DNA from: Cenarchaeum sp.
GTDB taxonomy: Archaea; Thermoproteota; Nitrososphaeria; Nitrososphaerales; Nitrosopumilaceae
Assembly (NCBI GenBank): GCA_965242695.1
Contig: CBDESU010000001.1
Coordinates: 1,568,001-1,632,000 of the forward strand
Reading direction: 5' to 3'
Length of the DNA: 64,000 nucleotides
How positions within the stretch are numbered: position 1 is the stretch's first letter; each line of letters begins with the position of its first letter. Made by a program: the position numbers and the translations under genes. The notes beneath the pieces were generated by a model. It was not told the origin of the DNA, made no database searches, and saw only the letters and a program-made list of their open reading frames with translations. Below are positions 22,239-55,500 of the stretch, in pieces.

Positions 22239-22329
22239 CCCCCCCCCCCACGAGCCTTCGCGGCGGCACGGGCAGCGCCCGCGGTCAAGCTACACGACAA
22301 CGGGCGTGCGCTCGGCGGGGGGTATTTAA
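22239..22329 (-). promoter_or_regulatory. TATA box, TTG and G11 tract upstream of surface-protein gene B
   Basis: TTAAATAC 22329-22322; TTG 22300; poly-G 22249-22239. Confidence 0.5.
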
Positions 22330-29095: not shown

Positions 29096-29581
29096 TCACG
29101 CATCGGGGCCGATCTTGAGCCTCTTTATTCTCTTGCCGTCCCGCCTCATCTGCCGCTCCCGTTCTGTGAGCCATGCGGCGTTCTGGAGGACTGAGTCGTT
29201 GGTGATCAACTTTTGCGACATCGGATCCAGCAATGTCTGGGCTGCCACGAACGCGTCCGTCCTTGTCATTCCCTCGACGTTTGCCATTATCTCAGCCGCC
29301 AGCTCGGCCGCCTCGGGGTCCGGCGGCGGAAAGCAGGTGCCGGGATCCGCTACCCTCTCGACCTCCCGCAGCATCTTGCGTACTGGCTCCTCCCACTCGC
29401 CGGGTCCATAGTCCCTCATCGCGGTCGTGACCGCCTCGCCGATGACGATCTGAGGCACCTTTACGTCGTAGTCGCCAGACTCGAGCCGGGCGAATATGTG
29501 GGCTACCCTCTTTCGGTCGGTGGGCTTTTTCGCCAAGAACTCTCTCAGCCCCCATGTATCCACGTATGTGACAATGCCCAT
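29096..29581 (-). CDS. PIN-domain (VapC-like) toxin, copy 2
   Basis: 161-aa close paralog of 23957-24442. Confidence 0.85.
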   Translation of the reverse strand: MGIVTYVDTWGLREFLAKKPTDRKRVAHIFARLESGDYDVKVPQIVIGEAVTTAMRDYGPGEWEEPVRKMLREVERVADPGTCFPPPDPEAAELAAEIMANVEGMTRTDAFVAAQTLLDPMSQKLITNDSVLQNAAWLTERERQMRRDGKRIKRLKIGPDA

Positions 29582-38400: not shown

Positions 38401-38928
38401 CGGACTATGACGGGATAGCCGAGCTCGGCGGCCGCCTCGCGCGCGCCGGCAAAGTCCGTCACCGTGCGGCTGCGGAGGACGGGTACGCCGCACTCTGTCA
38501 TGGAGTCCTTGAACAGCTGCCTGTCCTCGGTCCGGCGTATGCCGGACACGGGCGTGCCGAGGACGCGCACGCCGTACCGCTCGAGCGCGCCGGACTCGTC
38601 GAGGCCGACGCCGCAGTTTAGGGCCGTCTGCCCGCCGTACGCGAGCATGAGGCCGTCAGGCCGCTCGGACTCTATGATCGACTCTACGTACTCGGGCGTG
38701 ACGGGCAGCAGGTAGACGCGGTCGGCGAACCGCGTGTCCGTCTGGATGGTCGCCACGTTGGGGTTGACGAGCACGCTCTGCACGCCGTCCTCGCGTATGG
38801 CCTTGAGGCACTGGCTGCCGGAGTAGTCGAACTGGCGGCCGCCGTACGCGGCTCTCGCCGGCCTCTCCGATCTTGATGGCCCCGCTGCCTAGCACGAGCA
38901 CCTTTCCGGGCGCCTCTGCCCTAGCCAG
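35493..38928 (-). CDS. carB: Carbamoyl-phosphate synthase large subunit, two exons (38928-38854 and 38831-35493)
   Basis: KVLVLGSGAIKIGEAGE joined to FDYSGSQ after removing 22 nt; two ATP-grasp halves (NPRLSRSSALASKATGYP, NCNPETVSTDYD); MGS domain. Confidence 0.95.
38832..38853 (-). other. Putative 22-nt bulge-helix-bulge-type intron in carB
   Basis: mRNA GGCG-AG^A-GCCGC-GUACG-GCGGC-CGCC-AG^U; cuts after the 2nd nt of each bulge restore GAG UUC GAC. Confidence 0.8.
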
Positions 38929-40159
38929 ACCCGGCCGCCCCCGCGGCGTGCGCGGCCCTGCCGTCGTTCATCATGAGCGCGCCGAGCCGCTCAAATATGA
39001 ACCTGCAATCGTATGGGCCCGGCGAGGCCTCGGGGTGGAACTGGACGGCGATGCAGCGGCGCGACCGGTGGCGTATGCCCTCGACGGTGCGGTCGTCCGT
39101 GTTGGAGAACCACAGGTCAAAGTCGGTCCCGCCGAGCGAGTCGGGGTCTATGCAGTAGCCGTGGTTCTGGCTAGTGACGTACACCTGGCCGTCGTCCAGG
39201 TTGAGGCACGACTTGTTCTGGCCGCGGTGGCCGTACTTTAGCTTGTACGTGCGCGCGCCGCCGGCAAGCCCGATGATCTGCGCGCCGAGGCATATGCCGA
39301 GGGTCGGCACGTCGCCGTCGATGAGCGCCCTTGCGGTCTCGATCGTGGCCGCGCAGCGCTGCGGGTCGCCCGGCCCGTTGCTAATGACGACGCCCGACGG
39401 GTCCATCGCCATGATGCGGCCTGCGGGCGTGTCCCACGGCACCCTGACGACGCCGTACCCGAGCCGGCGCACGCTGCGTATGATGGCGTTCTTTGCGCCC
39501 GTGTCGATGACGACGACGGGGCCGCGCGCGGCGGCGCCCGGGGGAGGGGGGGCATCGGCAGGGGCGGGCTGATCGGGGCGGGCAGGCGGCTGCCCGGGCG
39601 GCGAGGCCCGCACGCCGTACCGCACGTCCGAGGCCGTCGAGACCTCGCCCATAAACTCCTCAGAGTCGTAGCGCCGCGCGGCGGCGAGGCCCTCGCGGAC
39701 CGCATCCGCATCGACTTTTTCGCCCGGGGCGGCGACGGCGAGCGCGGCCATCATGACGCCGCCCTCGCGCAGCCGCTTTGTCAGGGCCCTCGTGTCGATT
39801 CCCGATATGCCGGGGACGCCGTGCCCGTGCAGCCACTCGTCGAGCGTCATCGACAGCCTCCAGTGGCTCGCCGTCAGGGACAGCTCGTGGACGACGAGGC
39901 CTCGCGCCTGTATGCGGTCCGACTCGAAGTGCCGCGGTATGCCGTCCTCGTCCCTGTCGGCGGGGTCTGGGACGCCGTAGTTTCCCACGAGGGGGTACGT
40001 GAGGGTGAGCAGCTGGCCGCGGTACGACGGGTCGGTGAGCGTCTCTGTATAGCCGACCATTCCGGTGTTGAAGACTAGCTCGCCGTGCGCGGTAGTCGGG
40101 CTTCCGAACCCCTCGCCCCCGAGGACGGTGCCGTCGTCGAGTACGAGCGCCGCGTCCAT
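38921..40159 (-). CDS. carA: Carbamoyl-phosphate synthase small subunit
   Basis: GELVFNTGMVGY, SNGPGDP, GICLG, SQNHGY, QFHPEA. Confidence 0.97.
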   Translation of the reverse strand: MDAALVLDDGTVLGGEGFGSPTTAHGELVFNTGMVGYTETLTDPSYRGQLLTLTYPLVGNYGVPDPADRDEDGIPRHFESDRIQARGLVVHELSLTASHWRLSMTLDEWLHGHGVPGISGIDTRALTKRLREGGVMMAALAVAAPGEKVDADAVREGLAAARRYDSEEFMGEVSTASDVRYGVRASPPGQPPARPDQPAPADAPPPPGAAARGPVVVIDTGAKNAIIRSVRRLGYGVVRVPWDTPAGRIMAMDPSGVVISNGPGDPQRCAATIETARALIDGDVPTLGICLGAQIIGLAGGARTYKLKYGHRGQNKSCLNLDDGQVYVTSQNHGYCIDPDSLGGTDFDLWFSNTDDRTVEGIRHRSRRCIAVQFHPEASPGPYDCRFIFERLGALMMNDGRAAHAAGAAGSG

Positions 40160-40329: not shown

Positions 40330-41577
40330 ATGGCAGAGCAGGGGGCGCCCCCCATATACCTCGACTACAACGCGACGACGCCCGTGGACCGGCGGGTAGT
40401 CGATGCGATGCTGCCGTGGATGTCGTACAGGTTTGGCAACCCGGCTAGCGCCGGCCACGCGGCCGGGCGCGAGGCGCGGCATGCCGTCGAGGAGGCGCGC
40501 GGGCAGGTGGCTGATATGGTCGGGATGAACAGGCCCGACGTGGTCTTTACGTCCGGCGCGACAGAGGCCAACAACCTTGCCGTGCGCGGCCTGTACCCCG
40601 GCAGCGGCGACGGCGTCTCCATGCACATGCTCGCCGGCGCGACCGAGCACAAGTCCGTCCTCGAGGCGGGCCGGTCGATAGAGGAAGAATACATGAGCGG
40701 CTCGCTGTGCAGCATCGTCCCGGTCCTCGGCGACGGCACGCTCGACCTCGGCGCGCTAGAGTCGGAGATGTCCAGATGGCACGGGGAGATAGACGTCGTG
40801 TCCGTAATGGCCGCCAACAGCGAGACGGGCGTGATCCACCCCGTAAAGGAGGCGGCCGAGATCGTGCACGCCCACGGCTCGATCCTGCACTGCGATGCGA
40901 CGCAGGCGGCCGGCCGCGTGCCGTTTGATGCCGGCGCGCTCGGCGCAGACATGGTGACGATCAGCGCCCATAAAATGTACGGCCCAAAGGGGTGCGGGGC
41001 CCTCGTGGCGACCAGGGAAGCCAGGCGCCTGCTCGGGCCCATGCTGCACGGCGGCGGGCACGAGGACGGCCTGCGCAGCGGCACCCTCAACGTGCCCGGA
41101 ATAGTCGGGTTCGGGGTAGCCTGTACGATAGCCGCGGACGAGGGGCTCGCCGACGCGCCGCGCCAGGAAGGGCTGCGCGACCGGTTCGAGGAGGCGCTGG
41201 CCAAAGAGGTCCCCGACGTAGAGTTCAACGGGGCCGGCGCGCCCCGCCTGCCGAACACGTCGAATGCGAGGGTGCCCGGCGCGATGGCAGAGATGATTCT
41301 CGCCAACGTGCGGCGCGTGCAGATCGCCACCGGCAGCGCCTGCACGTCGGCGGCCGTCGAGCCGTCGCACGTGCTGCTAGCGATGGGCCTCGGCAGGGAA
41401 GAGGCAGGCGAGTGCGTGAGGGTCTCGTTTGGCAGGCCGTCGACGGAGGAGGATGCGGATGCGGCGGCGCTCGACATCGCCGCCGCCGCGGGCTTTATAC
41501 GCGGGCTGGAGGCGCGCGCCGCCGGCATGGATGCGGCGGCAATAGGAGCGGCGGCACGCGCGGAGGCCGCGTCCTGA
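40330..41577 (+). CDS. Cysteine desulfurase (IscS/DndA/SspA-like)
   Basis: YLDYNATTP, FTSGATEANN, SAHKMYGPKG, GSAC; stop overlaps the next start (TGATG). Confidence 0.93.
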   Translation: MAEQGAPPIYLDYNATTPVDRRVVDAMLPWMSYRFGNPASAGHAAGREARHAVEEARGQVADMVGMNRPDVVFTSGATEANNLAVRGLYPGSGDGVSMHMLAGATEHKSVLEAGRSIEEEYMSGSLCSIVPVLGDGTLDLGALESEMSRWHGEIDVVSVMAANSETGVIHPVKEAAEIVHAHGSILHCDATQAAGRVPFDAGALGADMVTISAHKMYGPKGCGALVATREARRLLGPMLHGGGHEDGLRSGTLNVPGIVGFGVACTIAADEGLADAPRQEGLRDRFEEALAKEVPDVEFNGAGAPRLPNTSNARVPGAMAEMILANVRRVQIATGSACTSAAVEPSHVLLAMGLGREEAGECVRVSFGRPSTEEDADAAALDIAAAAGFIRGLEARAAGMDAAAIGAAARAEAAS

Positions 41578-42554
41578 TGCGCCCTGACGAGGCGGCCCCC
41601 GTCGCATCGTTCTCGCGGCACGAGACGTTCCACCTCCGGTACGGGTGGCTCAAGAAGGGGTATGATGCGATCGCAAGGGATCCGCACGCGTTCACGCGCG
41701 ACGATGCGACGGTGAGGCTCGGCGTCGGCAAGAACATGGTAAGGTCGATCCGGTTCTGGGGGCTGGCGGCAAAGGTGTACGAGGCCGACAAGAAGACAAA
41801 GACTGCAAGGCCGACGGAGATGGGCCGCGCGCTGCTCGACGATGCGGGCGGGATGGACCCGTACCTAGAGAGGCCCGACACCCTGTGGATACTCCACTGG
41901 CTCGTCTTTGCGCCCCCCTGCCTGCTGCCGGCGTGGTGGGTGCTGGTCAACGATGCGCTGGCCGGATCCGTCGTCGTGGCCACCGACGACATGAGGAGGA
42001 GGGTGCGCGATGCGGTAGAGTCGGTCGACGCGTGGAGGCGGCCGAGCCCCCGCTCGGTCGACAAGGACTTTGACGTGTTCGTCCACACGTACTCGTCGAG
42101 GAGGGGGCGCGACATGGTAGAGGACTATCTGGACTGCCCGTTTCGCAGCCTGCACGTGCTCCGGCAGGGCACGCGCGACGAGATGAGGTTTGTGCAGGGC
42201 CCAAAGCCCGGCCTCTCGCCGCTCGCCGCCGCGTTCGCATGCCTAGACTTTGCCGACAGGTCGGGGTCGGCAGGGCGCACGGCGAGCGTCCACCGGCTGG
42301 CCATGGAGGCTGGCAGTCCCGGCAGGGCCCTCAGGCTTGACGAGGCCGACATGGCCGATCTCTTGGCGGGGGCCGCCGACGAGTGCGATGCGATCGCGGT
42401 GCGCAACGTAAACGGCGCGCAGAGCCTCGCGTTCGGGGACGGGGCGGGCGCGGCCCGGGAAGAGGTGCTGCGGGCGATATACGGGCGGCGGGCGCGTAGG
42501 AAGGGCAGGAAGAGGATCGCCGCTCCGGCGACTCTGGAGGTCGAGGCCGCATGA
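41577..42554 (+). CDS. DUF4007 protein (SspB-like)
   Basis: FSRHETFHLRYGWLKKG, LGVGKNMVRSIRFW, DPYLE...TLWILHW. Confidence 0.88.
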   Translation: MRPDEAAPVASFSRHETFHLRYGWLKKGYDAIARDPHAFTRDDATVRLGVGKNMVRSIRFWGLAAKVYEADKKTKTARPTEMGRALLDDAGGMDPYLERPDTLWILHWLVFAPPCLLPAWWVLVNDALAGSVVVATDDMRRRVRDAVESVDAWRRPSPRSVDKDFDVFVHTYSSRRGRDMVEDYLDCPFRSLHVLRQGTRDEMRFVQGPKPGLSPLAAAFACLDFADRSGSAGRTASVHRLAMEAGSPGRALRLDEADMADLLAGAADECDAIAVRNVNGAQSLAFGDGAGAAREEVLRAIYGRRARRKGRKRIAAPATLEVEAA

Positions 42555-44647
42555 CCCGTGCGAGGGCCGCAGGGGCAGGCAAGAGGGGCGCCGCTCCGGC
42601 AAGGGCGGCCGCGGCCCAAGCGGCTGCCGCAAGGACGGCCGCAAAAAAGAGACACGGTGAAGCCACGCCGCTCACGAGGATCGTGCGCGTGAGGCCGCCG
42701 GCGTACGCCTCGGTCAGCATAGAGAACGACCTGCACGACAAGGGCGGCGGCGCGCTAGACGGCTACATACCCGGCGCGGGCACGCTCGACACCGTATCGC
42801 GGCTTGGCGCCGGCATGCGCGGCGGCAAGCGCGGGCATGCAATCTCGGTGACCGGCCCGTACGGGTCGGGCAAGTCCGCAATGGCCGTATTCCTAGACGC
42901 CCTGCTTGCGCCCAAAAAGTCGCGCGAGTACGCAACGGCAAAAGAGATACTGCGCGAGGCGGACTCCCGCCTTGCCGACGTGTTCGACAAGTCGAGGCTG
43001 CAGCTCGGCATACAGCGGCGCGGGATGATCCGGTGCATGGCGACGGCCAAGCGCGAGCCCGTGTCGGCGACGATACTGCGCGCGCTAGACGCCGGGGCCC
43101 GGCGGCGCTTTGGGGACTACAAGGAGTCCGACTTTGAGGGCGCATCTGCCCTGTCCCGCATGGTGCGCGGCCTGGGCCGCGGCACGGCCCCCGACGCGGC
43201 CGCCGTCGCCGAGGCGGCGCGAGGCATGTGCACGGCCGATCCGGTCATTGTCGTGATCGACGAGTTTGGCAAGAACGTAGAGTACTTTACCGACGAGAAC
43301 ACGCGCGAGGGCGACCTGTTCCTGCTGCAGGAGCTCGCCGAGATGTCGGGCGCCTCGAGGGGCGTGCGCCTGTTCGTTGTGACGATGCAGCACATGGCGT
43401 TCGAAGAGTACGCGTCGGGCGCCTCGTCGTCGCAGAGGCGCGAGTGGGCAAAGGTGCAGGGCAGGTTCGACGACATACCGTTTGCAAACTCGCCAGAGCA
43501 GGCAAGGCGGCTCGTCAGGAGCGTCCTGGGGCCGGCCGGAACGGGCGGCAAAAAGGTCGGCACGGCGCTTCGCAAGTGGTCAAGGGATCAGGCCGGCAGG
43601 GCCGCGGCCATGGGGCTCGGCGGCGACTTGGACGAGGGGCTGCTGCACTCGTGCTACCCGCTACACCCGCTCTCGCTAGAGGTGCTGCCCGAGCTGTGCT
43701 CTAGGTACGGGCAGCACGAGCGCACGCTGATCTCGTTCATGGCCGGCGGCGGCGAGCATACGGTGGCGGGCTTTGTCGACAGGGCCGCGTGGGACGGGGC
43801 GGGGCAGCCGCCGACCGTAATGCTCGACGCGCTGTACGACTACTTTGTGGCCGGCTCGGCCCTGGTCCGCTCGGCGTCGTCGTCGGGCGCATCCAGGCTC
43901 TTGGAGATAGAGACCATAATACGCGACACGCAGGGGCTGTCCGACGACGAGTCGCGCGTGCTAAAGGCCGTCGGCGTGCTGAACCTGGTAGGGAGGGCCG
44001 GCAGGCTGCGTGCCTCGCGCAGCATGGTCGCGTACGCGGCCGGCATTGCAAGGCCCGATGCGGCCCTAAAGTCGCTCGAAAAGCGGTCAATACTGACGTA
44101 CCGCCGGCACTCTGACGAGTACCGCGTGTGGCACGGCACCGATGTCGATGTGCAGATGAGCCTGGATAACGCGCGCCGCAGGCTGGTTGCAATGCCGCTT
44201 ACCGGCCTGCTAAAGGCCACGCTGCCGCTCGACCCCGTGGTGGCGGCCCGGCATGCACTGCAGACCGGCACGACCCGAATATTCGAGAGGGTGTTTGCAG
44301 GGGCGGCCGAGGTAGCATCCGTCCAGCCTGGGCCAGGGTTTGACGGGGTGATCGTGTACCTGGCCGGCGAGGAGAGTGAAGGTCAGAAGGGCGGCGACAC
44401 TCCCCTGCCTGCGGCCGGCAGTCAAGAGGGGAAGAGGCCAGCTGTCGTAATCAGGGCGGCCGATCTAGAGGCCCTGCGCGAGGCTGCCCTGGAGGTCGCA
44501 TCCGTGCGAGACGTTCGCGACAACAGCCCAGAGGTGCAGGCCGACTGGGTGGCGCGCCGCGAGATTACCGAGCGCCTAGCTTGGGCAGAGTCGGCCCTAG
44601 AGAGGGCGTTTGAGGGGGCGTACGGTACAGGGAGTATGATACTAAGC
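42551..44647 (+). CDS. SspC-like P-loop ATPase, 5' part (reads on to a spurious stop at 44887 in this orientation)
   Basis: VTGPYGSGKS, VVIDEFGK, EWAKVQGRF, YPLHP, QHERTLISF. Confidence 0.85.
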
Positions 44648-46252
44648 GTTATCATCGCGTTTTCTCCTTCTAGGCGTCACGGACAGGCGCGATCGGCGCC
44701 CGGCAGGGCGTTCGGACGGCCGTACAGGGCCGCGTGGACCTCTGCGGCCAAGGGCAGGCCGCGGGCGCCGGCAGCATGGATCGCCGCACAGCCTAGCGCC
44801 GCTTGCCCCCCGACAGCCTGCCGCTCAGCTCGGCGAGCAGGGCCTTCACGCCGTCGCCGGCAAGCCCCCTTGCCTGCAGGTCCCTGATGGCACGATCGGC
44901 GGCCCTCTTGACGTGTGGTGCCTTGTCGGGCGGCAGGGCGACGATCGCATTCTCCTCGCCCCCATCTGGCCGCGTCACGGTCACGCGGTACGCAGGATGG
45001 TCGTATGCGTCGGACACCTCTGCGAGGTGCATCGATGCCAAGCGGGAGAACCGAGCCGAGATGTCCCTCAGCTTGTTGGTAAACAGGACGCGCTGCTCGT
45101 CGCTCCACTCGGACGGTGGCATGCCCGTGAGTGTGAGGGCCACGTATTTTATCCAGTCCTCGTTGCTCTCCAGCACGTCGTTTGACACGGCAGTCAGGAA
45201 CACCTTCATCTCGCGGTCCAGCACGTGCGGGGCTACCACTGCGGCCGCCCTCGAAAGCTTTTTGCGGGTCGACATCAAGGTAGACTTCAACACATCCTTG
45301 ACAAGGCCGCCAAGCATTACGCTGAACGCCCCTGACAGCTCGGCCAGCGACTTTGCAAGGGCGGTGGCAAACTTGTATATTTTTTCTTGTCCGGGGTCGA
45401 CATGACCAGACATGGCATCATAACCGAGTGCCCGAGGCAACGACTTTAGGAGCAGTGAGTCCGGTTCGACGGCCGTCTCGACGGCTAGGCGCACGGCGAG
45501 CGCCCTCTTGCTGAGCATCCGGGTCTTTTTGATATGTGGTGGGAGTGATGCATAGACGCCCACGAGGTGGGAGACGACGTCAAGGAGTGATGCCTTTGCC
45601 GCATCTTCCGGGGGCTGGACTCCAAGCTTGCCGGCGACCTGTCGTATGGTGGCCATGGCTGCCACGCCTTGTCCAAAGTATTTTATTTCAAAATGGGCAG
45701 GATTCCTGACAAGGCGCTCTGTAATCTCTGTCGTTATGGCGCGGCAGTACGTCCCGTGCTCGTACAGTGCGATGCGGTCTCGGTGCACGAGCAGGACGGA
45801 CACTGCAAGTAGGGGCATCAGTCCGGCCTTTACGCCGTAGGGCGGTTTGGAGAGTGACTCGTACACTGCAAGCAGGGACAGACGTTTGCCGGCATCTCTT
45901 GCCATCCCGACAATCTTTTTCCATGCAGGCTTGAAGTCTGCCCGGGAGGGAGATCGCATTACATGCACAAGGCCGGGCGCGCGGTGCATTCCCGATCGCG
46001 ACAGGACGGCCTCGTAGATCGCCCTGTCGGGGCCCCACCCCTCGATGCCCAAGAGTGGTGCGTCCGCCCGCTCGACCATGCCGCCGAGGAGCCTGTACAG
46101 GGCCGTCGAGCCCTGCGGCGTCAGCGCGTTGCGGTTGATCATCTCGTTGAAGACGTGCGGCGTGTTCGTGTACCACTGGTCACAGTACTCTGAGGCGATC
46201 GAGCTGGGGGTGTCCGAGCCCTTTGTATGCCCAGTATCGCTTAATATCATAC
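44634..46252. other. Inverted segment flanked by 18-bp inverted repeats (44634-44651, 46235-46252)
   Basis: GTATGATAcTAAGCGtTA versus GTATGATAtTAAGCGaTA (16/18); both read M-I-L-S in frame with the two ATPase halves. Confidence 0.85.
44793..46250 (-). CDS. SspC-like ATPase, 3' part, inverted
   Basis: TPHVFNEMINR..L, LGIEGWGPDRAIY..VL, KPPYGVKAGL.PLL, EPD.LL...LP.ALG motifs typical of this family's C-terminal half. Confidence 0.8.
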   Translation of the reverse strand: MILSDTGHTKGSDTPSSIASEYCDQWYTNTPHVFNEMINRNALTPQGSTALYRLLGGMVERADAPLLGIEGWGPDRAIYEAVLSRSGMHRAPGLVHVMRSPSRADFKPAWKKIVGMARDAGKRLSLLAVYESLSKPPYGVKAGLMPLLAVSVLLVHRDRIALYEHGTYCRAITTEITERLVRNPAHFEIKYFGQGVAAMATIRQVAGKLGVQPPEDAAKASLLDVVSHLVGVYASLPPHIKKTRMLSKRALAVRLAVETAVEPDSLLLKSLPRALGYDAMSGHVDPGQEKIYKFATALAKSLAELSGAFSVMLGGLVKDVLKSTLMSTRKKLSRAAAVVAPHVLDREMKVFLTAVSNDVLESNEDWIKYVALTLTGMPPSEWSDEQRVLFTNKLRDISARFSRLASMHLAEVSDAYDHPAYRVTVTRPDGGEENAIVALPPDKAPHVKRAADRAIRDLQARGLAGDGVKALLAELSGRLSGGKRR

Positions 46253-46268
46253 CCGTGCGCCTCGGCCC

Positions 46269-47105
46269 GTGCGCCACGTCTGCGGCATCTCGGGCGGCAA
46301 GGACTCTAGCGCCTTGGCCGTGTACATGCGCGAGAGGGTACCCGACATGGAGTACTTTTTCTGCGACACGGGCGCCGAGCTGCCCGAGACGTACGCATAC
46401 CTTGCCAAGCTAGAGGTCGTCCTAGGCAAGCCGATCGCGCGCCTCAACTCGACGAGGGGGTTCGACCACTACTTTGAGGTGTTCAGGGGAACGCTACCCT
46501 CGCCTCAGATGAGGTGGTGCACCACGCTCCTCAAGATAAAGCCGCTGGAGGAGTGGATAGGCGACGAGGAGGTCGTCTCGTACGTGGCCATACGGGCCGA
46601 CGAGAGCAACCGCAAGGGATACATCTCGACAAAGCCGAACATACGCACAAAGTTCCCGTTCGTTGACGACGACATCGACCACGCTGGTGTGATCCGCATA
46701 CTGGAGGACTCTGGGCTTAACTTGCCCGACTACTACAAATGGAGGACGCGGTCGGGATGCTATTTTTGCTTCTTCCAGCGCAAGGCCGAGTGGGTGGGCC
46801 TGGCCGAGCACCATCCTGAGTTGTTCAAAAGGGCCGTGTCTATAGAACAAAAAATATTAAAAGATGCAGGTATAGACGGTGACGCATCATTCGAATCTAA
46901 CGCAATGAAAAATGGTAACTATACTTGGTCGCCCGGCGAAACATTGGAACAGCTTTTAAAACGCAAAGATGATATAATACGTAATCACAAAAAACGTCTT
47001 GAAAAATCTAGATCTGCACAAAAAAATCGACCGTTAATAAGCATTCTGGCAGAAAGTTTAGATAGTGAAAGTTCCGACACGGGATGCACGGTATGCCATC
47101 TATAG
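46269..47105 (+). CDS. PAPS-reductase family protein (SspD/DndC-like)
   Basis: SGGKDS, DTG.E.PETY, RWCT..LKI.P, RSGCYFCF, terminal CTVCH. Confidence 0.9.
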   Translation: MRHVCGISGGKDSSALAVYMRERVPDMEYFFCDTGAELPETYAYLAKLEVVLGKPIARLNSTRGFDHYFEVFRGTLPSPQMRWCTTLLKIKPLEEWIGDEEVVSYVAIRADESNRKGYISTKPNIRTKFPFVDDDIDHAGVIRILEDSGLNLPDYYKWRTRSGCYFCFFQRKAEWVGLAEHHPELFKRAVSIEQKILKDAGIDGDASFESNAMKNGNYTWSPGETLEQLLKRKDDIIRNHKKRLEKSRSAQKNRPLISILAESLDSESSDTGCTVCHL

Positions 47106-47330
47106 GTGATAAAAATGACAACAGGTATTAGTTATAAACTAAGCGATCTTATAAAAGAATCGATTCATGAGAAAGAAGGGCCAGACAGTATAAACGAATT
47201 GCTTGTAGACATACTTGAAAAAGAAGCTGAATGGCAATATGAAAGCCCCTATGATGCACTAGCAGAGTTTAAAAAAACATACAAGAAATTAATTCAATTG
47301 CATTGTCCATACAAGGTGGGATCAAATTGA
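47106..47330 (+). CDS. Small acidic protein (PbeB-like candidate)
   Basis: 74-aa ORF tightly packed between sspD-like gene and ATPase. Confidence 0.55.
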   Translation: MIKMTTGISYKLSDLIKESIHEKEGPDSINELLVDILEKEAEWQYESPYDALAEFKKTYKKLIQLHCPYKVGSN

Positions 47331-49504
47331 ATGGGGAGTATAGGATCGTGGAGGTTCGCCTGAATAACTACAGGCAATATTATGGTTCTGTCACGGTGAC
47401 ACTTGCGTCACAAAAAGACAGATTTGCAGCTGTGATCGGAAACAATGGCGCGGGTAAATCCAACATTCTTAATGCGATCAATTGGTGCTTTTTTCACAAA
47501 GAACCACACATGCGGCAGCTTGAAGGACTTCCAATCATCAACATCAAGCGTATCAAGGAAGCCGATGAAGAATCAAAAATTGAAATGAGTGTATCCGTAA
47601 TACTTGAGCAGGGTACGACAAAATATAACGTAACTAGAAAACTTGCGGTTGTTAAACACAAATTGGAAGTGGGTGCTGATGGCGAGTACCGAATTATTAA
47701 CCTAGAAGATGCACCATATAGTGAGCTTATGCCTGTAGGATTTGAAAAGCTTTACAATCTTTCAAGGCCAACATTTCACAGGTCTGAAAATGGCGGGACC
47801 TGGGAAGATCAAACAAAGTCACATAGATTCAGTGCAATAGTAAATCAAATATTGCCAGAATCGCTATCGAAGTTTTTCTTGTTGGATGGGGAATTTCTCG
47901 AGAAGTTTTTCGATGGACAACAAAAAATTAGCGAAGGTGTGAGGCAAATTTCACAACTTAATGTTTTGGAGGAAACATTGAATCATATAAAACGTGTAAA
48001 ATCGTCAGGTCGTGCTAATTATGATAATCAAAAAGTAAATGATCTCGAAGACAAAATCAAATTACATGAAAAATGGCTGGATTCGTTGGGCGATAACGGT
48101 GAAGAGTTAACGGATGAACTTATACCCGGTACTGATAGGGCATATCACAAAAATGGAGTGCCGAGGGAAAAAGACCTGAAAAGTGCACTAGTATACCTAG
48201 ACAGTGAGCGTAACAACATTCGTAAAAAGCTGTATGAACAAGGACAAATATCCAACGCAGATCTTCATAAGAAAAAGGCAGAGCTGGATGATAAAGTTAG
48301 CAATGTCGGTAGTCAACGATACAAAATTATAAAGCAGCAAAGAGATCTGCTGATTAAACAAAGTCCTAAAATAATGCTGGGCGAGGCCTTGAAGAATACG
48401 ATTGACATGGTGAATGTCGAAATAGAAAAAGGCAAGCTTCCAAATCGAAGTAAAATCATATTAGCTAATGATCTCCTGTCAAGAGAAACTTGCATTTGTG
48501 GAACAAGTCTTAAAACTGGAACCAGAGCGCGTGACAACGTAGAATCAATGAGGGCATCAGTCTACGACGATGTTGATCTAGACTTGGCCAATGATATTAA
48601 GTATGCAAATGAACAAGATGTAGGAAAGATGGTGGAAGTTAAGAAAATGATAGGCAAGAACACGATTGAAATCAATGACTTTGGAGACACATTACGAAAG
48701 ATTGGTGAAGAGATATTAGAGATTAAGAATCAGATAGTTGATGACTCGGATGATCAATTTCAACTGATGACACAACAGGGGCAGCGCATAGACAGGGATT
48801 ATGACAAGGTCCAAAAAGAACTAAGTGATATTGGGTTAGAGATTAAACGGCGGCAAGGAGATTTGAAATCGTGCAGGCAGGACTTGAGCGCCATAAATGT
48901 CAGTAATGAGAAAGTGGCAAGGAGATTATATGAATCAAAAGTGTTAGAACAAGTACATGACTTGCTCGAATCGCTTTGTGAAGATTTAAGCGACAGTATA
49001 AGAAAAAAAATTCAAGATAAAACAACTATGTATTTTAAAAAAATAATGTGGAAGGAGGGATTTTTCGAGCAGGTCCAAATCGACAAGGATTACAGGCTTA
49101 AGTTGCTAACGACGACGGGATTTGATGCTATCGATAGCCTAGCTGCTGGAGAGAAATTGTTTCTTGCGTTCGCATTTGTTGCGGCCCTCCGTGAAATCAC
49201 GGGCTACAGATTTCCATTAGTCATCGATAGCCCGCTTGGAAAAGTGGCAGGAACACCACGAAGGCTATTAGCCAAACAGTTGCCCGTTTTTCTTCCTAAC
49301 TCACAATTGGTTTTGTTAGTCACTAACACAGAATATTTGGTCCCACTTCCTACTAACGATGAAGACCCAAAACCTGGAAAATCGTTCAAGAGTATACTGT
49401 CTGAAAAAGTGAGCGTGTGCGAGTCCGTCATAGAGTTACACAAGGCAAACCACAGCTCTAAGGTCGTTCCGTACGACAACGGGGGGATGGATAATGACTA
49501 CTGA
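47327..49504 (+). CDS. SMC/Rad50-like ABC ATPase (DndD/PbeC-like)
   Basis: NYRQYYG, GNNGAGKS, FFLLDGE, coiled coils with CICG hook, LAAGEK, LVIDSPLG. Confidence 0.85.
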   Translation: MNGEYRIVEVRLNNYRQYYGSVTVTLASQKDRFAAVIGNNGAGKSNILNAINWCFFHKEPHMRQLEGLPIINIKRIKEADEESKIEMSVSVILEQGTTKYNVTRKLAVVKHKLEVGADGEYRIINLEDAPYSELMPVGFEKLYNLSRPTFHRSENGGTWEDQTKSHRFSAIVNQILPESLSKFFLLDGEFLEKFFDGQQKISEGVRQISQLNVLEETLNHIKRVKSSGRANYDNQKVNDLEDKIKLHEKWLDSLGDNGEELTDELIPGTDRAYHKNGVPREKDLKSALVYLDSERNNIRKKLYEQGQISNADLHKKKAELDDKVSNVGSQRYKIIKQQRDLLIKQSPKIMLGEALKNTIDMVNVEIEKGKLPNRSKIILANDLLSRETCICGTSLKTGTRARDNVESMRASVYDDVDLDLANDIKYANEQDVGKMVEVKKMIGKNTIEINDFGDTLRKIGEEILEIKNQIVDDSDDQFQLMTQQGQRIDRDYDKVQKELSDIGLEIKRRQGDLKSCRQDLSAINVSNEKVARRLYESKVLEQVHDLLESLCEDLSDSIRKKIQDKTTMYFKKIMWKEGFFEQVQIDKDYRLKLLTTTGFDAIDSLAAGEKLFLAFAFVAALREITGYRFPLVIDSPLGKVAGTPRRLLAKQLPVFLPNSQLVLLVTNTEYLVPLPTNDEDPKPGKSFKSILSEKVSVCESVIELHKANHSSKVVPYDNGGMDNDY

Positions 49505-49922
49505 TCTAGATGCAAAATTCCCCGAAGTTTTGTATGATCGAAGCTTGAATGAGAAACTGCTTGAACTTGTCAATCAAGATTGGTCACCATTTAAGGGGCA
49601 TACTATGGCCGACGTGTTCATCTACACTATGGCATACGCATTTTCACGCAACATGAAAGCAAGGCCGCTAAGCCCAAAACCCATGAAACTTCCCCCCCAG
49701 GCATTTGATGCCGAAAAACGAACATTGATGCGCTCGCTTGCAATGCATGTTAAAAACGATATTTCAGTGATTAAGAACAACAACGAAGTTATAACGATAT
49801 GTGCCGAATATTCTAACGCTGGAACTACAGAAGTTTACAATACATTGTACAATAAAGAGCACAACGTCACATCGGAAAATGTGTTGGAAGAGTTTTTGGA
49901 GGAGCGTGACAATTCATGCTAG
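49494..49922 (+). CDS. Small protein (DndE/PbeD-like candidate)
   Basis: Overlaps the ATPase stop; ADVF..TMAYAF and CAEYSNAG resemble ATPase-partner proteins. Confidence 0.55.
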   Translation: MTTDLDAKFPEVLYDRSLNEKLLELVNQDWSPFKGHTMADVFIYTMAYAFSRNMKARPLSPKPMKLPPQAFDAEKRTLMRSLAMHVKNDISVIKNNNEVITICAEYSNAGTTEVYNTLYNKEHNVTSENVLEEFLEERDNSC

Positions 49923-50886
49923 GCATAATAGGAACATCGGCAAGCACAAGGCGTACGGCAAGATGTACAAAGTGGCATCTATTGCAGATCCAAGGCATTA
50001 CTAGACAAGTCAGAGGGATTGAACATGACACTAATGAATAATAAGTTCGAACCAAAGATGTGCTGGGATTCTGACACAGACAACATACTTGATGACTTTT
50101 ATCTTCAGGGGTTAAAAAATAGCAAGAAGTATGATCGTCTTGCAGGGTATTTTTCATCAACACTATTTGTCAGAACTGCATATGAAACGCTAGATTTTAT
50201 AAAACGTGGTGGGAGAATAAGAATTGTGACCAGTGCCACACTTTCGTATAACGATTTAGATACAATAAAAAACATAAATCACTATGCAAATGCTGTAGAC
50301 GAATCATTCTTAAACGAAATAGTAAAAAATACTAATGAAATAGAACATAAATGTAAATCATTATTTGGCTGGTTGTTGAATCAAAAGGTCGAAGGGAAGC
50401 CGCAGTTAGAAATCAAAATTGCAATGCCAAAAAGGCCTACAGGCATATTTCATCAAAAAGTTGGAATATTTACTCTTGTAGACAACAGCATAGTGACATT
50501 TTCTGGATCAGTTAATGAAACAGTCAAAGGCTGGCAGGACAATGTTGAGCAATTTAAAGTGTTCATGAGTGGAAAGGACAGAACAAACGAACATGCAATC
50601 AAAAATGACCAAGATAATTTTGAAAGGTATTGGAAAAATCAAAATTCTGGATACAAAGTTGTGAACTTACCAAAAGCAGTCACCACCCATTTGCTGTCTA
50701 TTGCCCCCAATTCGGAATCAGAGTTTAAGTCGTTAGTAGACCACTTGGAAAAGAAATTCTACAAAAAGCGTGTTAGATCATCAGGCATAGTGTTGAGAGA
50801 CTATCAAGAAAAGGCAATAGAATTATGGGCAAAAAATAATTTTCGCGGCATATTCGCAATGGCAACGGGTACTGGTAAAACATATA

Positions 50887-52339
50887 TTGTTCACGTCATA
50901 AAGATTTGACTTATTTTACCCAAACTATTTGACGCGGTCAGGGTCTGCAAACAGTGGGATGTATTTTTTGGGCGACTTCGGTACCGGTTGATCGCCGTAT
51001 TTGCGGATTATATAATTCAACGCTCCTTCTTTACCATGTCGATTTTTTCTTCGCTTTATGTTTCGCCTGTATGCATACGGACTTCTCAATAGATATTTCC
51101 AAAGGTTGAGGCGAGGGTTTAACATAGTGTTAAGGTATCTTAGTGTCTTCCGCCTCTTTTTTGTAATACTTGAAAAATATTCATCATAGAACTCGGCAAG
51201 CTTGGTTTGGCGCCAATTTGCCTCCTGTAGACTCAAGTATGACGACCCCGGTGGAAGATAAAATATGATTATCATGTTTTCCATCTTGTCAATGAAATCC
51301 TTTAGTTTCTTGGACTTGTGCCATCCTGCGTTGTCAGAGATCACCACGATTGGGCCGAATTCTTCGACCGCTTTTTTCAAAAGCTTGATGACACCATCAG
51401 TGTTGGCTGCGTCGTACATAACGTTGCAATGCCGAGCAACGCCATTTTTGTCGGGCTCGGTGGTCAGTCCCAGTGCGACACACTTGGAACCCTCTCCAAT
51501 GTAGGGCACCTTGACGGCCTCGCCCGGGGGCGACCAGTAGATCAGCTTGCCGTTCGCGTCTTGGTATACTATCATCTCGTCCTCGATCACCACTAGATAA
51601 CCCTCTTTTTTGAGCGCCAAAATCTGGGGTAGGACCACTTTGCGCCAGTAGTAGACCTCGTGCGGTTCGGGCGATCCAACGTGTGCCTTCTCTGCCTTCT
51701 TTCCGGTCAGGCCTTCCTCGTGCAGTATGCGCAGGGCCTGCCTTTTGGACATTCTTAACTTGCACAGTTTGTACATTTCAGTGATAAGCTTGCGGGGGGT
51801 AATACGACCGCCGTTTTTCTTGATATTTTTGATCGCCTTTTTGACCAGTTTGCGATCATAAACGTGCGGTCGTCCCTGCCCGCCCTTATCGTACAGCCCG
51901 TTGACCCCCTTCAAGGTGAATCTTTTCATGTAATTTCTGACCGAACCTGTGGATACGCTTAGCTCTTCCGCGGTCATTTTGCAGGCCTTTGTTTTTTTCA
52001 TTTTTGATTTTTTGATCTTTACGCGAACAGAATTAACAACTAGCATTCTTTTTAGAGCCCTTGGATCTTTCTCCACCTTGATTGCTCTTTGGAGATTTCC
52101 TAACCTCATTGCCCGCCGACGCTCAGCGGGGTCTATTATATCTAGGCCTGCGTCCAAATGCCTAGAATGAAAAATTGAGTATCAGCTTTTTAGTATAAAT
52201 GATTAAAATCTATGGAATCAATTGATATCAAATCAAGTCCTGGGTGGAGTGTATGCAACCACATCGTCTGCAATCGATCGTTAATGGTTGATGGTTGGCT
52301 TGCTTCACAATTAGTGTCAAAACTTTATGTCCTAAACAA
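50887..52339 (-). mobile_element. IS630-family element, 1453 bp
   Basis: Imperfect TIR TTGTTCACGTCATAAAGATTTGAC / TTGTTTAGGACATAAAGTTTTGAC; TA duplication at 50885-86 and 52340-41. Confidence 0.9.
50925..52157 (-). CDS. IS630 transposase
   Basis: HTH with GQGRP, EDE, DNAGWH, LPPGSSYLSLQEANW. Confidence 0.9.
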   Translation of the reverse strand: MDAGLDIIDPAERRRAMRLGNLQRAIKVEKDPRALKRMLVVNSVRVKIKKSKMKKTKACKMTAEELSVSTGSVRNYMKRFTLKGVNGLYDKGGQGRPHVYDRKLVKKAIKNIKKNGGRITPRKLITEMYKLCKLRMSKRQALRILHEEGLTGKKAEKAHVGSPEPHEVYYWRKVVLPQILALKKEGYLVVIEDEMIVYQDANGKLIYWSPPGEAVKVPYIGEGSKCVALGLTTEPDKNGVARHCNVMYDAANTDGVIKLLKKAVEEFGPIVVISDNAGWHKSKKLKDFIDKMENMIIIFYLPPGSSYLSLQEANWRQTKLAEFYDEYFSSITKKRRKTLRYLNTMLNPRLNLWKYLLRSPYAYRRNIKRRKNRHGKEGALNYIIRKYGDQPVPKSPKKYIPLFADPDRVK

Positions 52340-53816
52340 TACTGCGCTAGGAGGAATCAGCAAAGTGCTGGAAAATGAAAAACGGACAATTGTAATAATT
52401 TCATCTCCACAAAAACACATTGCTGATCAATGGAGAGAGAATATAAAATCATGGAATCAAGGTGTTAAAAAAAAGGATGCGTTGGGAGAACGAGTAGTCA
52501 TGGCCTATAGCGAAAATCCCAGATGGAAAAAAGATATGGATGAATTGGTGTATAAGTTTAACAAGAATGTAATTGGCCATGATCGATTTTTAGTCAATAG
52601 TTGTATAATATGTACAACACACAACACATTTGCGACAGATAAGTTTATTAACAGGATACTCATGATGAAGAAAAACAATGCCAATGTTTTATTAATAGCA
52701 GATGAAGTACATGGAATGGGTTCCCCCAATCGTCAGAACGGGTTGAGTATGCATTATCAATACCGGTTAGGTCTTAGTGCAACACCAATACGTCATTACG
52801 ACGAATTAGGCACAAAAAAAATCCAGGAATACTTTACAAAAACAGTCTACGAACTCCCACTTCAAACAGCGATTTCTGAAGGCTATCTGGTCCAATATAG
52901 TTACCATCCACACTATATCGAACTTACTGATGCAGAGCTAATCGAGTATAGGGATCTAACGATAAGACTCGCTAAAAAATACATGGCCAAAGCAAGGGGT
53001 GAAAAAGTTGATGAAAGTGACACGAGATTGGAAGAGATGAGATCTAACATAATTGCTACGGCCATAAATAAGTATAATCAATTTGAAAATATAATAGATG
53101 GGTATGGAAATTCTCTTACGCGGTGCTTGGTATATTGTCATCCAAAACAAATTGATACTGCAACAAAAATTTTGACTGCGAAAAATATCATAAACACAAA
53201 AATTACGTGGAAGGACCCTGCTCATGATCGAGAACGGATCATTAATGCACTGGAAAACGAACAATATCAATGTGTCACTGCGATACGTTGCCTAGACGAG
53301 GGGTACGATATACCGGCCGCAAAGTTGGCCATAATTTTAGCTAGTTCAGGAGATCCCCGCCAATATATACAACGTAGAGGAAGAGTGTTACGGCGATTTC
53401 CATGTAAGGATCACGCAGAAATACATGACATATTAGTAAAACCGTCACGAATTGTTGATCAAAATGTCGAAGTGTCAAGATACATAAAAAAATTAGTGGC
53501 GCGTGAACTACTACGTCATAAAGAATTTGCAGATGCCGCATTCAACAAAAAAGAAGCATATGAAAAGGTTTATGATACGGCACAAAATTATGAAATTGTC
53601 TTGGATGAACTTTCACCGTCGTATATAGAATCAATTTAAAGATTATTTTCATAAAGCAATATTACCCGCTCCAGATCAGATCAGATCTCCCATACAACAT
53701 TAGTACTGCCGATCGTAATGTCACATCATCTGTCGTATTACCGGTTCTGTCAATTGTACATTGAGGCCGACAGACGTTTAAAACCGTCAAGCCGTGTTCT
53801 GAAAAATTCAGAGGGG

Positions 53817-55500
53817 TCAGTCACGGTGTAACCGATCTATCTTGTTGTAGTGCATGGAGTCTCGTTCACGTGCCTCTATTACGTTAGCCTTTACATCTTC
53901 GGTCAGCTGCTCAGAGAGCGGAAGGCTGCAAGGGTCTACGGCCAAGCGGCGGCTCATGCAGTACTCGGCAAGGCAGTAGTACACGTCGCTAATCAGCGTG
54001 GGCAGCACATCCGCGTACAACGGACGCCCCGGCACGGCTTCCGACGGGCCTGCTGGGCCGCCCGGGGAAGCCGGAGGGCGTGCCACCAGAGATGCGTTCG
54101 CCGCCACCGCCCTGCCGCGCCTCCTGCACAGGCCTTGCATCCTCGGCCCCGCCGTCGACGTCGACTGCGACCTCGGACCGCCCTGCCGTGCCTCCTGCAC
54201 AGGCCTTGTATTGCCCCGATCAGCTTCTGCAGCACGGCGCGCTCGGCGCGTGCGGATGGCCGGGCCTCGCAGGCCATCGCATGGGTCGACTTGACGGCCG
54301 TCATGAGGTGGAGCGCATGATCAAGCAAAGAGCCTTCGTCGTCGTCGGCATCGTGCCATCTTGTGGGCGGGCCAAGGTCGACGAGGGCTTGATCCTCAGG
54401 GCCTACCGGCGATGCGTGCCGTCCGCCCGCCAGGTCGCGCCAAGCGCCGACAACCCGCCCCAGGCCATGCCTCAGTTCGTCAAGGCGTTCCGGCACTGGG
54501 CCGAGCCCGCACGCTTTCTCGAGCAGGTCTGGAAGGCCCACGCCCTCGAGCCCCAAGGCGGCATCTTTCACTGCCTTCGGCCACGGTGGCTAGGGCGCCC
54601 AGTGGCATCCAGTATACGGCGGCCCTCGTCGGTCAGGTCGTAGTAGTAGTGCGGTTTGTTGACGGGCCTCGAATTGAAGTCGGGGTCTGCGATGATCCAC
54701 CTTTGGCACCCCTCTGGCGCGCCGTGCAGCCTTGCGCCGCGCAACGGGTCGTACCGGCGATCGCCGCGCGACGGGCCTCCCATCCGCCGATCAGACTCTG
54801 CCTCGACCAGTGACAGGGCCGCGCCAATGCCGGCGTGCGAGCAGATCGGGCCGGTCGCGTCTAGGATCAGCATGGTGGTCCATATGTAGCCGGGCACCGT
54901 GCGGATATCGGGATCGGTCGATGCCACCGGCTCGACTGTCAGTATGTGATCGGGGCTGCGCGGCACCGGCCTCGGCGTATCCAGCCACAGCGCGGCGTCC
55001 TGTAGCGGTCGGACGGACCAGGTTTGAGGGCGTATGAAAGGTGGTCAAAGTCGGACATGGTCGTGACCTCTTCGAGCCAGGTTTGAACCTGGTCGTAGAG
55101 TCCGAGCCGGCCGAGCAGCCATCCCCTGGCCCTGAGCCGGTGCCACGGCGTGTCGGACTCCTTGGCCTCGTCGCTACCATAGTACTCTAGCGCGGCGCGG
55201 TAGCCGCCGCGCCCTACCGCATCCCGCATGTAGCCGCCTATGCGGTGGTCGTCCAGCTCGGGCCTGGCATACAGGCCATGCAGGGCCGCCGCCGGCGCGG
55301 GACGGACCGCGGGATACAGGATCTTGGCGGACACTCGGCCCTGCGGCGGATTTCTGAGGGCCTGCCGAGTGCTGCCCAGGCTGACCACATCGTATCCAGA
55401 GGGGCCCGGCATTCTGGGCGCAACATCTTCGCCGCCGCCCCACGGTACCGCCCCGCCAGGCGCCTCGGCGGCCCCCCTGTCCGACGCCACACGGTAACTT
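53817..55500 (-). pseudogene. Frameshifted paralog of the 538-aa wHTH-like protein
   Basis: Homologous segments spread over ORFs 54939-55586, 54568-54966, 53993-54571, 53817-54200. Confidence 0.75.

Follow-up and report, generated by a model that had tools for sequence, protein, structure and literature searches.

A predicted phosphorothioation island in archaeal DNA joins Ssp writer genes to Pbe effector genes and carries an inverted sspC segment

Introduction

Single-strand phosphorothioation (PT) systems of the types SspABCD-SspE and SspABCD-SspFGH were reportedly described by Xiong in Nat Microbiol in 2020 and by Wang in mBio in 2021. The 64-kb stretch of archaeal DNA analysed here (contig CBDESU010000001.1; "the window" in the following) holds an island at 40330-53639 that shares with them the four writer genes and their order. 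Unlike those systems, it has a Pbe effector set as the neighbour of the writer, with no SspE or SspFGH found in the screened open reading frames (ORFs), and its sspC gene has a putative clade-specific recombination site and was found inverted. The locus is probably a two-module, restriction-modification-like PT island, in which an Ssp writer joined to a Pbe effector is switchable by sspC inversion and pbeA has been broken by an insertion sequence (IS).

The Pbe set was defined in haloarchaea beside dndCDEA, and all four of its genes are reported to be required for protection (PMC6459918). As far as the available text of that paper describes DndCDEA-PbeABCD, the window resembles it in having a PLD-helicase, a protein of ~70 aa, an ABC ATPase and a protein of ~145 aa beside a PT writer in an archaeon. 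It differs in that the writer is Ssp and not Dnd (no DndC, DndD or DndE was found in the screened ORFs), that the gene order is B-C-D-A instead of A-B-C-D, that pbeA is IS-broken, and that PbeC belongs to a Nitrosopumilaceae-type subclade with 23-26% identity to haloarchaeal PbeC. Pbe has been equated with the CxC ABC ATPase-DndE systems, which comprise a CxC ATPase, a cognate DndE, an HKD nuclease-SF2 helicase and a small disordered protein (PMC10853773). These are said to "mix and match", pairing with Dnd modules or cytosine methylases or standing alone (PMC10853773). All four features are present in the window; the partners described in the available text are DndD-type PT modules and cytosine methylases, whereas the partner in the window is Ssp. 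Type 4 BREX (bacteriophage exclusion; BrxP-BrxC-PglZ-BrxL) is related through its components, since SspC, SspD and SspB are homologous to BrxC, the BrxP PAPS reductase and DUF4007, according to the accessible part of PMC12839542. The PADLOC matches to BrxC and BrxP in the window are weaker, with the Ssp models scoring far above the Brx models. Unlike type 4 BREX, the window gave no PglZ or BrxL match in the screened ORFs, and SspD and DUF4007 are separate genes.

The PT pairings described so far are Dnd-DndFGH, Dnd-Pbe and Ssp-SspE/SspFGH; the window and its relatives add a fourth, Ssp-Pbe, in both Archaea and Bacteria. A 2025 review names dndFGH/sspFGH, sspE and pbeABCD as restriction branches, and its available text holds no Ssp-Pbe pairing (PMC12707154). 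The term "pbe" is absent from a 2026 BREX survey and a 2026 gut PT paper. We found no description of the Ssp and Pbe pairing in the literature; supplementary Data S1 of PMC10853773 and Data 3/4 of PMC6459918 may list Ssp-adjacent CxC/Pbe loci. An earlier note on this DNA had called the combination uncharacterised, which fits the literature, but the same arrangement is already present, unnamed, in annotated public plasmids.

The island encodes an Ssp writer and a Pbe effector set

The earlier note had predicted eight gene types (cysteine desulfurase, DUF4007 protein, large ATPase, PAPS reductase, 74-aa ORF, Rad50-like CxC ATPase, 142-aa ORF and PLD-helicase), and all of them were located at 40330-53639 with Pfam and PADLOC. 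The PADLOC hidden Markov models (HMMs), which that note had proposed to run, assign SspA, SspB, SspC, SspD, PbeC and PbeA, and the predicted combination of an Ssp writer with a Pbe effector is supported by PADLOC and by the ABC-ATPase tree below. The genes are not the single co-oriented cluster that had been described: the 3' part of sspC lies on the minus strand, and pbeA is in two pieces around a minus-strand IS630-family transposase. Apart from sspC and pbeA, which are listed further below, the island contains the following genes:

40330..41577, plus strand: sspA, cysteine desulfurase, 415 aa, GC 0.70 (Pfam Aminotran_5, E 8.9e-63; PADLOC SspA, E 2.8e-121, and DndA, E 2e-120)
41577..42554, plus strand: sspB, DUF4007 DNA-binding/nicking subunit, 325 aa from the ATG at 41577 (Pfam DUF4007, E 8.8e-77, positions 1-288/288; PADLOC SspB, E 3.8e-85)
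46269..47105, plus strand: sspD, PAPS-reductase-type sulfurtransferase, 278 aa, intact but chimeric (PADLOC SspD, E 2.1e-109, positions 1-276/277)
47106..47330, plus strand: pbeB-like gene, small protein of 74 aa, or 71 aa from the ATG at 47115 (local HMM)
47303..49504, plus strand: pbeC, CxC-type ABC ATPase, 733 aa from a TTG; the 718-aa form in the searched collection starts at 47348 (PADLOC PbeC, E 3.1e-87)
49494..49922, plus strand: pbeD-like gene, DndE-fold protein, 142 aa (synteny and fold comparison)

Once the two halves of sspC are summed, the four writer genes match the PADLOC Ssp models end to end and are an SspABCD writer set. SspD is of the short type (~280 aa) and not DndC (~500 aa); the DndC model gives E 1.7e-6 for this protein, compared with E 2.1e-109 for the SspD model, and no better DndC match was obtained from the screened ORFs. 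Exactly the same SspB protein is present in the searched protein collection. A TTAATA element lies ~30 nt upstream of the sspA ATG and may be its promoter; a sigma-70 promoter and terminator scan was set aside as inapplicable to an archaeon. In PADLOC screens of 11, 8 and 34 window ORFs, SspE, SspFGH, DndFGH, PglZ and BrxL were not found, in agreement with the absence of SspE, PglZ and BrxL noticed earlier. DndE and a second ABC ATPase were likewise not found by PADLOC in the screened window ORFs.

The two small Pbe proteins were assigned by synteny, a local HMM and fold comparison, not by PADLOC, whose models matched no PbeB-like or PbeD-like protein, neither in the window nor in the surveyed loci. 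This survey covered 29 genome loci with a PbeC alignment and 9 plasmid loci inspected among 41 records with a PbeA match. The 74-aa ORF has no Pfam, PADLOC or NCBIfam match. A local HMM built from 5 small ORFs directly upstream of PbeC (L001-L005) matched it as the only one of 854 window ORFs (E 1e-7), and the same HMM also picked up the small ORF immediately preceding PbeC at 12 more loci outside its training set. Homologues of the 142-aa protein lie directly downstream of PbeC in 18/29 genome loci. Its match to NCBIfam TIGR04062 (dnd_assoc_4) is below the cut-off, with E 3.6e-6. The AlphaFold2 (AF2) model has a pLDDT of 89.8, and the best PDB folds are those of DndE (7x4e and 4lrv; probability 0.96-0.97, with weak E values of 0.14-0.35). 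The description of PbeD as a DndE cognate (PMC10853773) fits this DndE-like fold. Both the 74-aa and the 142-aa ORF genuinely belong to the Pbe set.

For the ATPase, the PbeC model scores E 3.1e-87 and the best DndD model E 1e-35 (PADLOC). The protein has a Walker A motif (GNNGAGKS) and a C-I-C at residue 397. A phylogeny separating DndD from PbeC had been proposed earlier, and an IQ-TREE tree was calculated from 48 ABC ATPases of the window and 38 fetched loci. It splits DndD from a CxC/PbeC clade with support 100/100 and places the window protein in the latter, as sister to the PbeC of L004, a Nitrosopumilaceae metagenome-assembled genome (MAG; support 96/94). The CxC motif is present in 28/29 PbeC-type rows and in 0/18 DndD rows. 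Two plasmid ATPases, L038 2478-4487 (plus strand, Lactiplantibacillus) and L036 13222-15207 (plus strand, Aurantiacibacter), fall in the CxC/PbeC clade on long branches and have no mid-region CxC.

sspC is split by an inversion between 18-nt repeats

SspC does not occur in the window as one intact protein of ~1100 aa. It lies in two parts on opposite strands, with these features:

42551..44647, plus strand: sspC 5' part, residues 1-699, ending in GTGSMILS (PADLOC SspC PDLC02781, E 5.3e-187, positions 3-635/1104)
44634..44651, plus strand: left inverted repeat GTATGATACTAAGCGTTA, encoding M-I-L-S (repeat search; 18 nt, 89% complementary, 16/18 positions)
44652..46234, no strand assigned: invertible segment between the repeats (~1.6 kb), made up of a 141-bp spacer and the sspC 3' part
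44793..46250, minus strand, open frame to 46277: sspC 3' part (the 3' 40% of the gene), inverted, 485 aa from the ATG of MILS at 46250 (PADLOC SspC PDLC02781, E 2.7e-104, positions 655-1101/1104)
46235..46252, minus strand: right inverted repeat GTATGATATTAAGCGATA, read on the minus strand, encoding M-I-L-S, 16 nt upstream of the sspD start (repeat search)

The 18-nt repeats coincide exactly with both points where SspC homology breaks. The 5' part can be aligned to the SspC of L004 up to residue 695 and the 3' part to its residues 489 to 896; compared with this intact SspC, no residues are missing. In the present orientation, the 5' ORF runs on to 44887 through a non-homologous tail of 79 aa. 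When the segment was flipped in silico, a single ORF of 1180 aa starting at 42551 resulted, followed by a 175-bp spacer before sspD. Fused SspC relatives have 1021-1192 aa. The repeat pattern has exactly 2 copies in the window, compared with 0.02 expected, and 0/100 shuffles gave 2. The left repeat contains a perfect 6-8-6 dyad (ATGATA-N8-TATCAT, 44636-44655). At the MILS site the DNA is AT-rich and uses rare codons, within a gene whose GC content at third codon positions (GC3) is ~0.85. The inverted 3' part has a GC of 0.62, versus 0.68-0.70 for sspA, sspB and the sspC 5' part. A second candidate site within sspC, a 17-nt pair at 44561-44577/45712-45728 with 94% complementarity, encodes EITERL in both arms. 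It was rejected as a coding coincidence, because distant fused homologues, too, have kept EITERL at both positions.

The arrangement resembles known invertons (phase-variable Type I hsdS shufflons and "partial intergenic invertons", as the available literature presents them). The inverted repeats are short, one is inside the gene and one outside, the segment is >1 kb, both orientations have been seen (see below), and the target is a defence/epigenetic gene. It differs from them in having no alternative domain to swap in, in its archaeal host and in its target, the ATPase gene of a PT writer. Since there is no alternative domain, the sspC switch is an on/off one (fused or split). A preprint gives 12 putative invertons in 42 archaeal genomes (bioRxiv 10.1101/2023.03.11.532203). 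Among the titles and abstract openings of the literature on phosphorothioation with phase variation and inversion, no switchable PT system is described.

Split and fused sspC junctions in related proteins

Relatives (P0002-P0010, P0107-P0120 and P0257-P0280) were compared at the protein level. The junction of the split orientation (OFF), in which M or V and ILS are followed directly by V, is present in 13/13 N-half proteins of the clade (window + 4 + 8). In the N-half cluster of the window (at least 90%), 4/4 other members read GSMILS followed by VIIAF, and 8/8 of the next relatives (75-86% identity, 749-808 aa) have the junction as well. Among the C-halves, 3/4 other members of the corresponding cluster (at least 90%) are full length, P0262 being without its first 57 residues, and 6/6 at 75-82% identity have an open frame as far as the usual C-terminus, 5/6 beginning at the M of MIL. 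Two pairs of N- and C-halves are on equally long contigs (25141 and 3980242). Among relatives, the tail that the N-half gains by read-through has an identity of 23-60%, versus 81-88% for the body, and in this comparison behaves as non-coding sequence would. The next homologues, at 67-70% identity, are 5/5 fused and have no MILS site. The inversion is thus more than an accident, because relatives show the same junction.

A fused (ON) junction was found in P0120. This protein reads residues 282-699 of the N-half and then residues 10-60 of the C-half, letter for letter, and is 100% identical over 468 residues. Both orientations are therefore seen for the same sequence, OFF in the window and 12 relatives and ON in P0120, at the protein level and from assemblies, not reads. 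P0120, the N-half P0257 with an OFF junction and the C-half P0262 come from contigs of equal size (16431) and may derive from one fold-back contig; this would mean that both junction types were in the reads, since an assembler needs both to build such a contig. We lean towards reading the sspC inversion as a switch, conserved and reversible, that turns PT writing on and off and, with it, PT-dependent defence.

The same proteins can be read as a stable split gene, with an N-terminal ATPase half and a C-terminal half of sspC on opposite strands that are expressed separately and assemble in trans, so that the "OFF" arrangement is the working form. All 13 N-halves of the clade are split, the C-halves are intact and in 5/6 relatives start at the ATG inside the repeat, and both halves have diverged to a similar degree (75-86% for the N-half, 75-82% for the C-half), all of which speaks for such a gene. 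However, it leaves unexplained why a fused form with 100% identical residues exists (P0120), and a fixed inversion gives no reason for a MILS repeat conserved at both junctions. Moreover, the tail of the N-half is poorly conserved, and the 50 nt before the C-half ATG are GC-rich sspD coding sequence, apparently without an AT-rich, TATA-like element. We consider a stable split gene unlikely, and a reversible switch remains the reading that we prefer.

A low-GC cassette begins within sspD

The island is compositionally double, with a GC of ~0.68-0.70 until the middle of sspD and a low GC from there until ~53900:

46830..53900, no strand assigned: low-GC cassette, GC ~0.33-0.47 in a genome of ~0.68 (composition profiles)

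The pbeB, pbeC, pbeD and pbeA genes have a GC of 0.33-0.41, and high GC is back at ~53900. Within sspD, codons 1 to ~185 are high-GC and the remainder is low-GC. At ~46810-46840, right behind the most conserved block, SGCYFCFFQRKAEWVGL, GC3 goes down from 0.80-0.95 to 0.10-0.45. Over residues 1-185, six members of the SspD 90% cluster share 94-98% identity with the window protein, and over residues 186-278 they share 72-83%. Identity to the L004 SspD alone did not expose the chimera, but the GC3 profile did. From the fall of GC3 inside sspD it follows that the Pbe half is a foreign, low-GC cassette, and from the position of the boundary that the donor already had sspD directly followed by pbeB and pbeC. 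The step in identity among the cluster members points to exchange of the Pbe cassette together with the sspD 3' end, or to its evolving faster than the writer does. In tblastn searches, no leftover native sspD 3' end and no other Ssp pieces were found at the right border of the island. ARAGORN (0 tRNA) and Rfam (0 RNA genes) gave no possible integration site of the cassette in the window.

The compositional changes are sharp, inversions at repeats can be assembly errors, and the inversion and the GC jump might stem from misassembly or chimerism. Yet high-GC DNA resumes beyond the island, and the contig holding these proteins has 2.21 Mb. The same split was assembled independently in 12 relatives, and five related contigs appear to carry both SspD and PbeC. 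Repeats of 18 nt are shorter than the usual assembly k-mers, which also counts against an artefact. We regard this explanation as extremely improbable.

pbeA is interrupted by an IS630-family element

The last gene of the island encodes a PLD/HKD nuclease fused to an SF2 helicase. An intact PbeA was not found; its domains are present and collinear but IS-split:

50019..50886, plus strand: pbeA 5' fragment, PLD/HKD nuclease and start of the SF2 helicase up to Walker A (GTGKTY) (PADLOC PbeA, E 1.3e-76, positions 8-283/672; Pfam PLDc_2 and ResIII)
50887..52339, minus strand: IS630-family element, 1453 bp, with 26-nt terminal inverted repeats (Pfam DDE_3; NCBIfam transpos_IS630, E 1.3e-33, above the cut-off)
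52342..53639, plus strand: pbeA 3' fragment, remaining helicase and C-terminal domain (PADLOC PbeA, E 5.9e-119, positions 284-671/672; NCBIfam dnd_restrict_1, E 3.9e-97)

The 5' fragment contains an HxK...GSxN motif at residue 145. The transposase gene is at 50925-52157 on the minus strand. A TA target duplication is present at 50885-50886 and 52340-52341, and the insertion lies right after the Walker A codons, with the two fragments of pbeA joining in frame. The relative P0280, which belongs to the same 90% cluster as both fragments, is an intact protein of 727 aa that reads GTGKTYTALGG across the insertion point and is identical at 269/287 positions to the 5' fragment and at 393/424 to the 3' fragment. 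Since P0280 is intact, we read the IS insertion as a recent, strain-specific knock-out of pbeA.

Two independent disruptions in one locus could point to a decaying island, a defence locus in the course of loss where inversion and IS each arose once by chance and nothing is programmed. A strain-specific insertion, with P0280 intact, and the lack of a recombinase gene nearby among the scanned window ORFs would agree with this. Decay does not account for the same sspC junction in relatives down to 75% identity with both halves open, nor for the fused junction. The repeats, too, are exact to the homology break, far beyond chance, and no residues have been lost. In view of these points we hold decay to be very unlikely and continue to favour a switchable sspC.

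A second IS630-family transposase gene lies at 57873-59173 (plus strand), in two ORFs of 206 and 227 aa and with high GC. That it is a sister copy of the element in pbeA was ruled out, as the protein is only 30% identical. In L002 (Nitrosopumilus), several transposase fragments of the IS630 type, akin to the IS of the window, come ahead of a Dnd-Pbe locus, as does a DpdB-like ORF (PADLOC E 1.7e-16; 2486-6897 and 7958-9607).

Ssp and Pbe genes co-occur in other loci

The earlier note had made its reading depend on the downstream genes being found with Ssp genes elsewhere, and the neighbourhood survey located them there. L004 carries SspC-SspD-PbeA facing PbeB-PbeC-PbeD. In the plasmid pRinCIP108029a of Rhizobium indigoferae, SspABCD adjoins Pbe, and a Sphingomonadaceae plasmid (CP099618.1) has one co-oriented operon sspA-B-C-D-pbeA-B-C-D in which sspD and pbeA overlap by 4 nt. 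The objection that these genes never occur together elsewhere thus fails. Of the 29 genome loci, 1 is Ssp-linked (L004), 14 are DndC-linked and 14 have neither, several of the latter being on short contigs. The corresponding numbers for the 9 plasmid loci are 2, 4 and 3; in one of the 3 with neither writer, a methyltransferase adjoins Pbe. The Ssp-linked label has to change 3 times on the tree, at least 2 of these changes being forced by starred branches, and both plasmid rows are on long branches. SspD cluster members (at least 90%) and PbeC relatives (71-84% identity) were found on equally long contigs of 30668, 15789, 7691, 12350 and 7280, and these five related metagenomic contigs probably carry the Ssp-Pbe pairing, as far as equal lengths indicate. 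The size of 30668 is common to SspA, both SspC halves, SspD and the PbeC of 84% identity, and this contig probably holds another complete hybrid locus, again OFF.

Several loci differ in what accompanies Pbe. L001, a Chloroflexota MAG with 30% GC, has a Pbe set beside a DUF262-like Orf5/HEC-06 protein at 1632-3401 (minus strand; PADLOC E 2.7e-67), and at the edge of the contig a dndA/sspA gene is represented by its 3' end. In L034 and L035 (Rhodobacterales plasmids), a "sigma factor-like HTH" protein of ~1000 aa (8105-11158, plus strand) lies between the Dnd and Pbe modules, and a "DGQHR protein 1" follows Pbe.

Adjacency is not proof of coupling, because CxC/Pbe systems are argued to be often independent of neighbouring writers (PMC10853773, in its available text). 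An orphan SspABCD and a self-sufficient CxC/Pbe system could share the island as two neighbours, with Pbe not reading Ssp-made PT. CxC systems without any PT writer have been reported and their PT dependence has been questioned (PMC10853773), and 320/553 PbeAC were given as without dndCD within 10 kb (PMC6459918); both statements are from the accessible parts of these papers. In our survey, neither Ssp nor DndC was nearby in 14/29 genome and 3/9 plasmid loci. However, the pairing occurs in at least 3 unrelated contexts, and the tree needs 3 gains or losses of the Ssp-linked label. One co-oriented operon has overlapping sspD and pbeA, and the cassette boundary inside sspD means that the donor already had sspD followed by pbeB. 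The recurrence, the structure of the operon and the place where the cassette begins lead us to infer that Ssp and Pbe are probably coupled in function. Independence of two neighbours is not likely.

A working model of the island

In the model that we favour, an Ssp writer coupled to a Pbe effector, SspA would pass sulfur to SspD, while SspB and the large ORC/Cdc6-type ATPase SspC would choose and prepare the DNA site, giving a predicted single-strand PT at a CCA-type motif. The Pbe set (PbeC, PbeD, PbeB and PbeA) would replace the published Ssp partners SspE or SspFGH, and by analogy with DndCDEA-PbeABCD it would be expected to block unmarked invading DNA in a PT-dependent manner. The native high-GC sspABC with the first two thirds of sspD, and the low-GC sspD end with pbeBCDA, were probably joined by recombination in the conserved core of sspD. 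An unlinked site-specific recombinase would drive the sspC flip, presumably a frequent one; this enzyme is hypothetical. In the present genome, the system would be off twice, through the inverted sspC (a "partial intergenic inverton") and the IS-interrupted pbeA. The island is silent in this model because sspC is in the split orientation and pbeA carries an IS. In a Dnd-Pbe pair, deletion of the writer is reported to cause no growth defect while protection is lost (PMC6459918, in the text available); an off switch of the writer should be tolerable for that reason.

A number of points weigh against this model. No recombinase or integrase was found among the 40, 36 and 16 window ORFs scanned with NCBIfam and Pfam; these scans gave only transposases, two of the IS630 family and one ISH3-like. 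PMC10853773, in its available text, makes the case that the activity of CxC/Pbe systems frequently does not depend on the PT writer beside them. With 13/14 observed junctions OFF, the data fit a stable, possibly functional split gene too. The sole ON junction is a metagenomic protein, and its co-location with the OFF proteins is deduced from equal contig sizes. The conservation of the repeat in relatives is deduced from protein sequences. Finally, the C-terminal third of SspD is intrinsically less conserved, which weakens the identity step but not the GC3 step; the compositional step is the firmer of the two because this C-terminus is more variable by nature.

It is possible, and we offer it tentatively, that a high-GC archaeal clade (probably Nitrososphaerota) phase-varies its whole PT epigenome by flipping sspC at a purpose-built 18-nt site. 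PT-dependent Pbe defence would be turned on and off as a form of bet-hedging, and the Pbe cassette would be exchanged between strains through recombination in sspD. If true, a programmed switch would here be known for the first time in a DNA-backbone modification system, and the very small number of functional archaeal invertons would grow by one. If Pbe works with Ssp, it must cope with single-strand PT, which bears on the dispute whether Pbe/CxC reads PT. The inverted sspC would be a natural on/off allele of a PT writer, and a comparison of both orientations within one population would show the cost and benefit of PT. The breakpoint in sspD offers a concrete example of effector-module swapping through recombination in a conserved writer gene. 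Gene callers report a split sspC as two hypothetical proteins, and surveys that require an intact sspBCD miss this clade for that reason.

The window and its host

The window is archaeal DNA with a GC of ~0.68, and PolB, Hef, carAB and a CdvC-like ATPase are encoded in it. The ESM-Atlas clusters closest to the CdvC-like ATPase are mostly from Nitrososphaerota, which is a taxonomic lead only. The attribution to an ammonia-oxidiser lineage in the earlier note was not borne out: the host DNA has ~68% GC, and the Amo family is absent from the Pfam and NCBIfam scans of the window. The nearest genomic relatives of the low-GC Pbe half are Nitrosopumilaceae.

Some further features were observed outside the island. 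The PolB ORF (8175-11585, minus strand) has ~300 extra N-terminal residues, the NCBIfam match beginning at residue 298, owing to either a mis-called start in the high-GC DNA or a real extension. The carA small-subunit protein (38921-40159, minus strand) has a Pro/Ala-rich insertion of ~35 residues between its two domains, and its match covers 394 residues versus 359 in the model. At 14297-22269 (minus strand) two giant ORFs of 1235 and 1361 aa are neighbours, with NHL repeats as their sole recognisable features. An ORF of 461 aa at 26518-27903 (plus strand) has a weak match to an ISH3-family transposase (NCBIfam E 2.9e-19, below the cut-off). It is surrounded by many family-less ORFs (22-33 kb) and by PIN-domain ORFs at 23957-24442 and 29096-29581, both on the minus strand.

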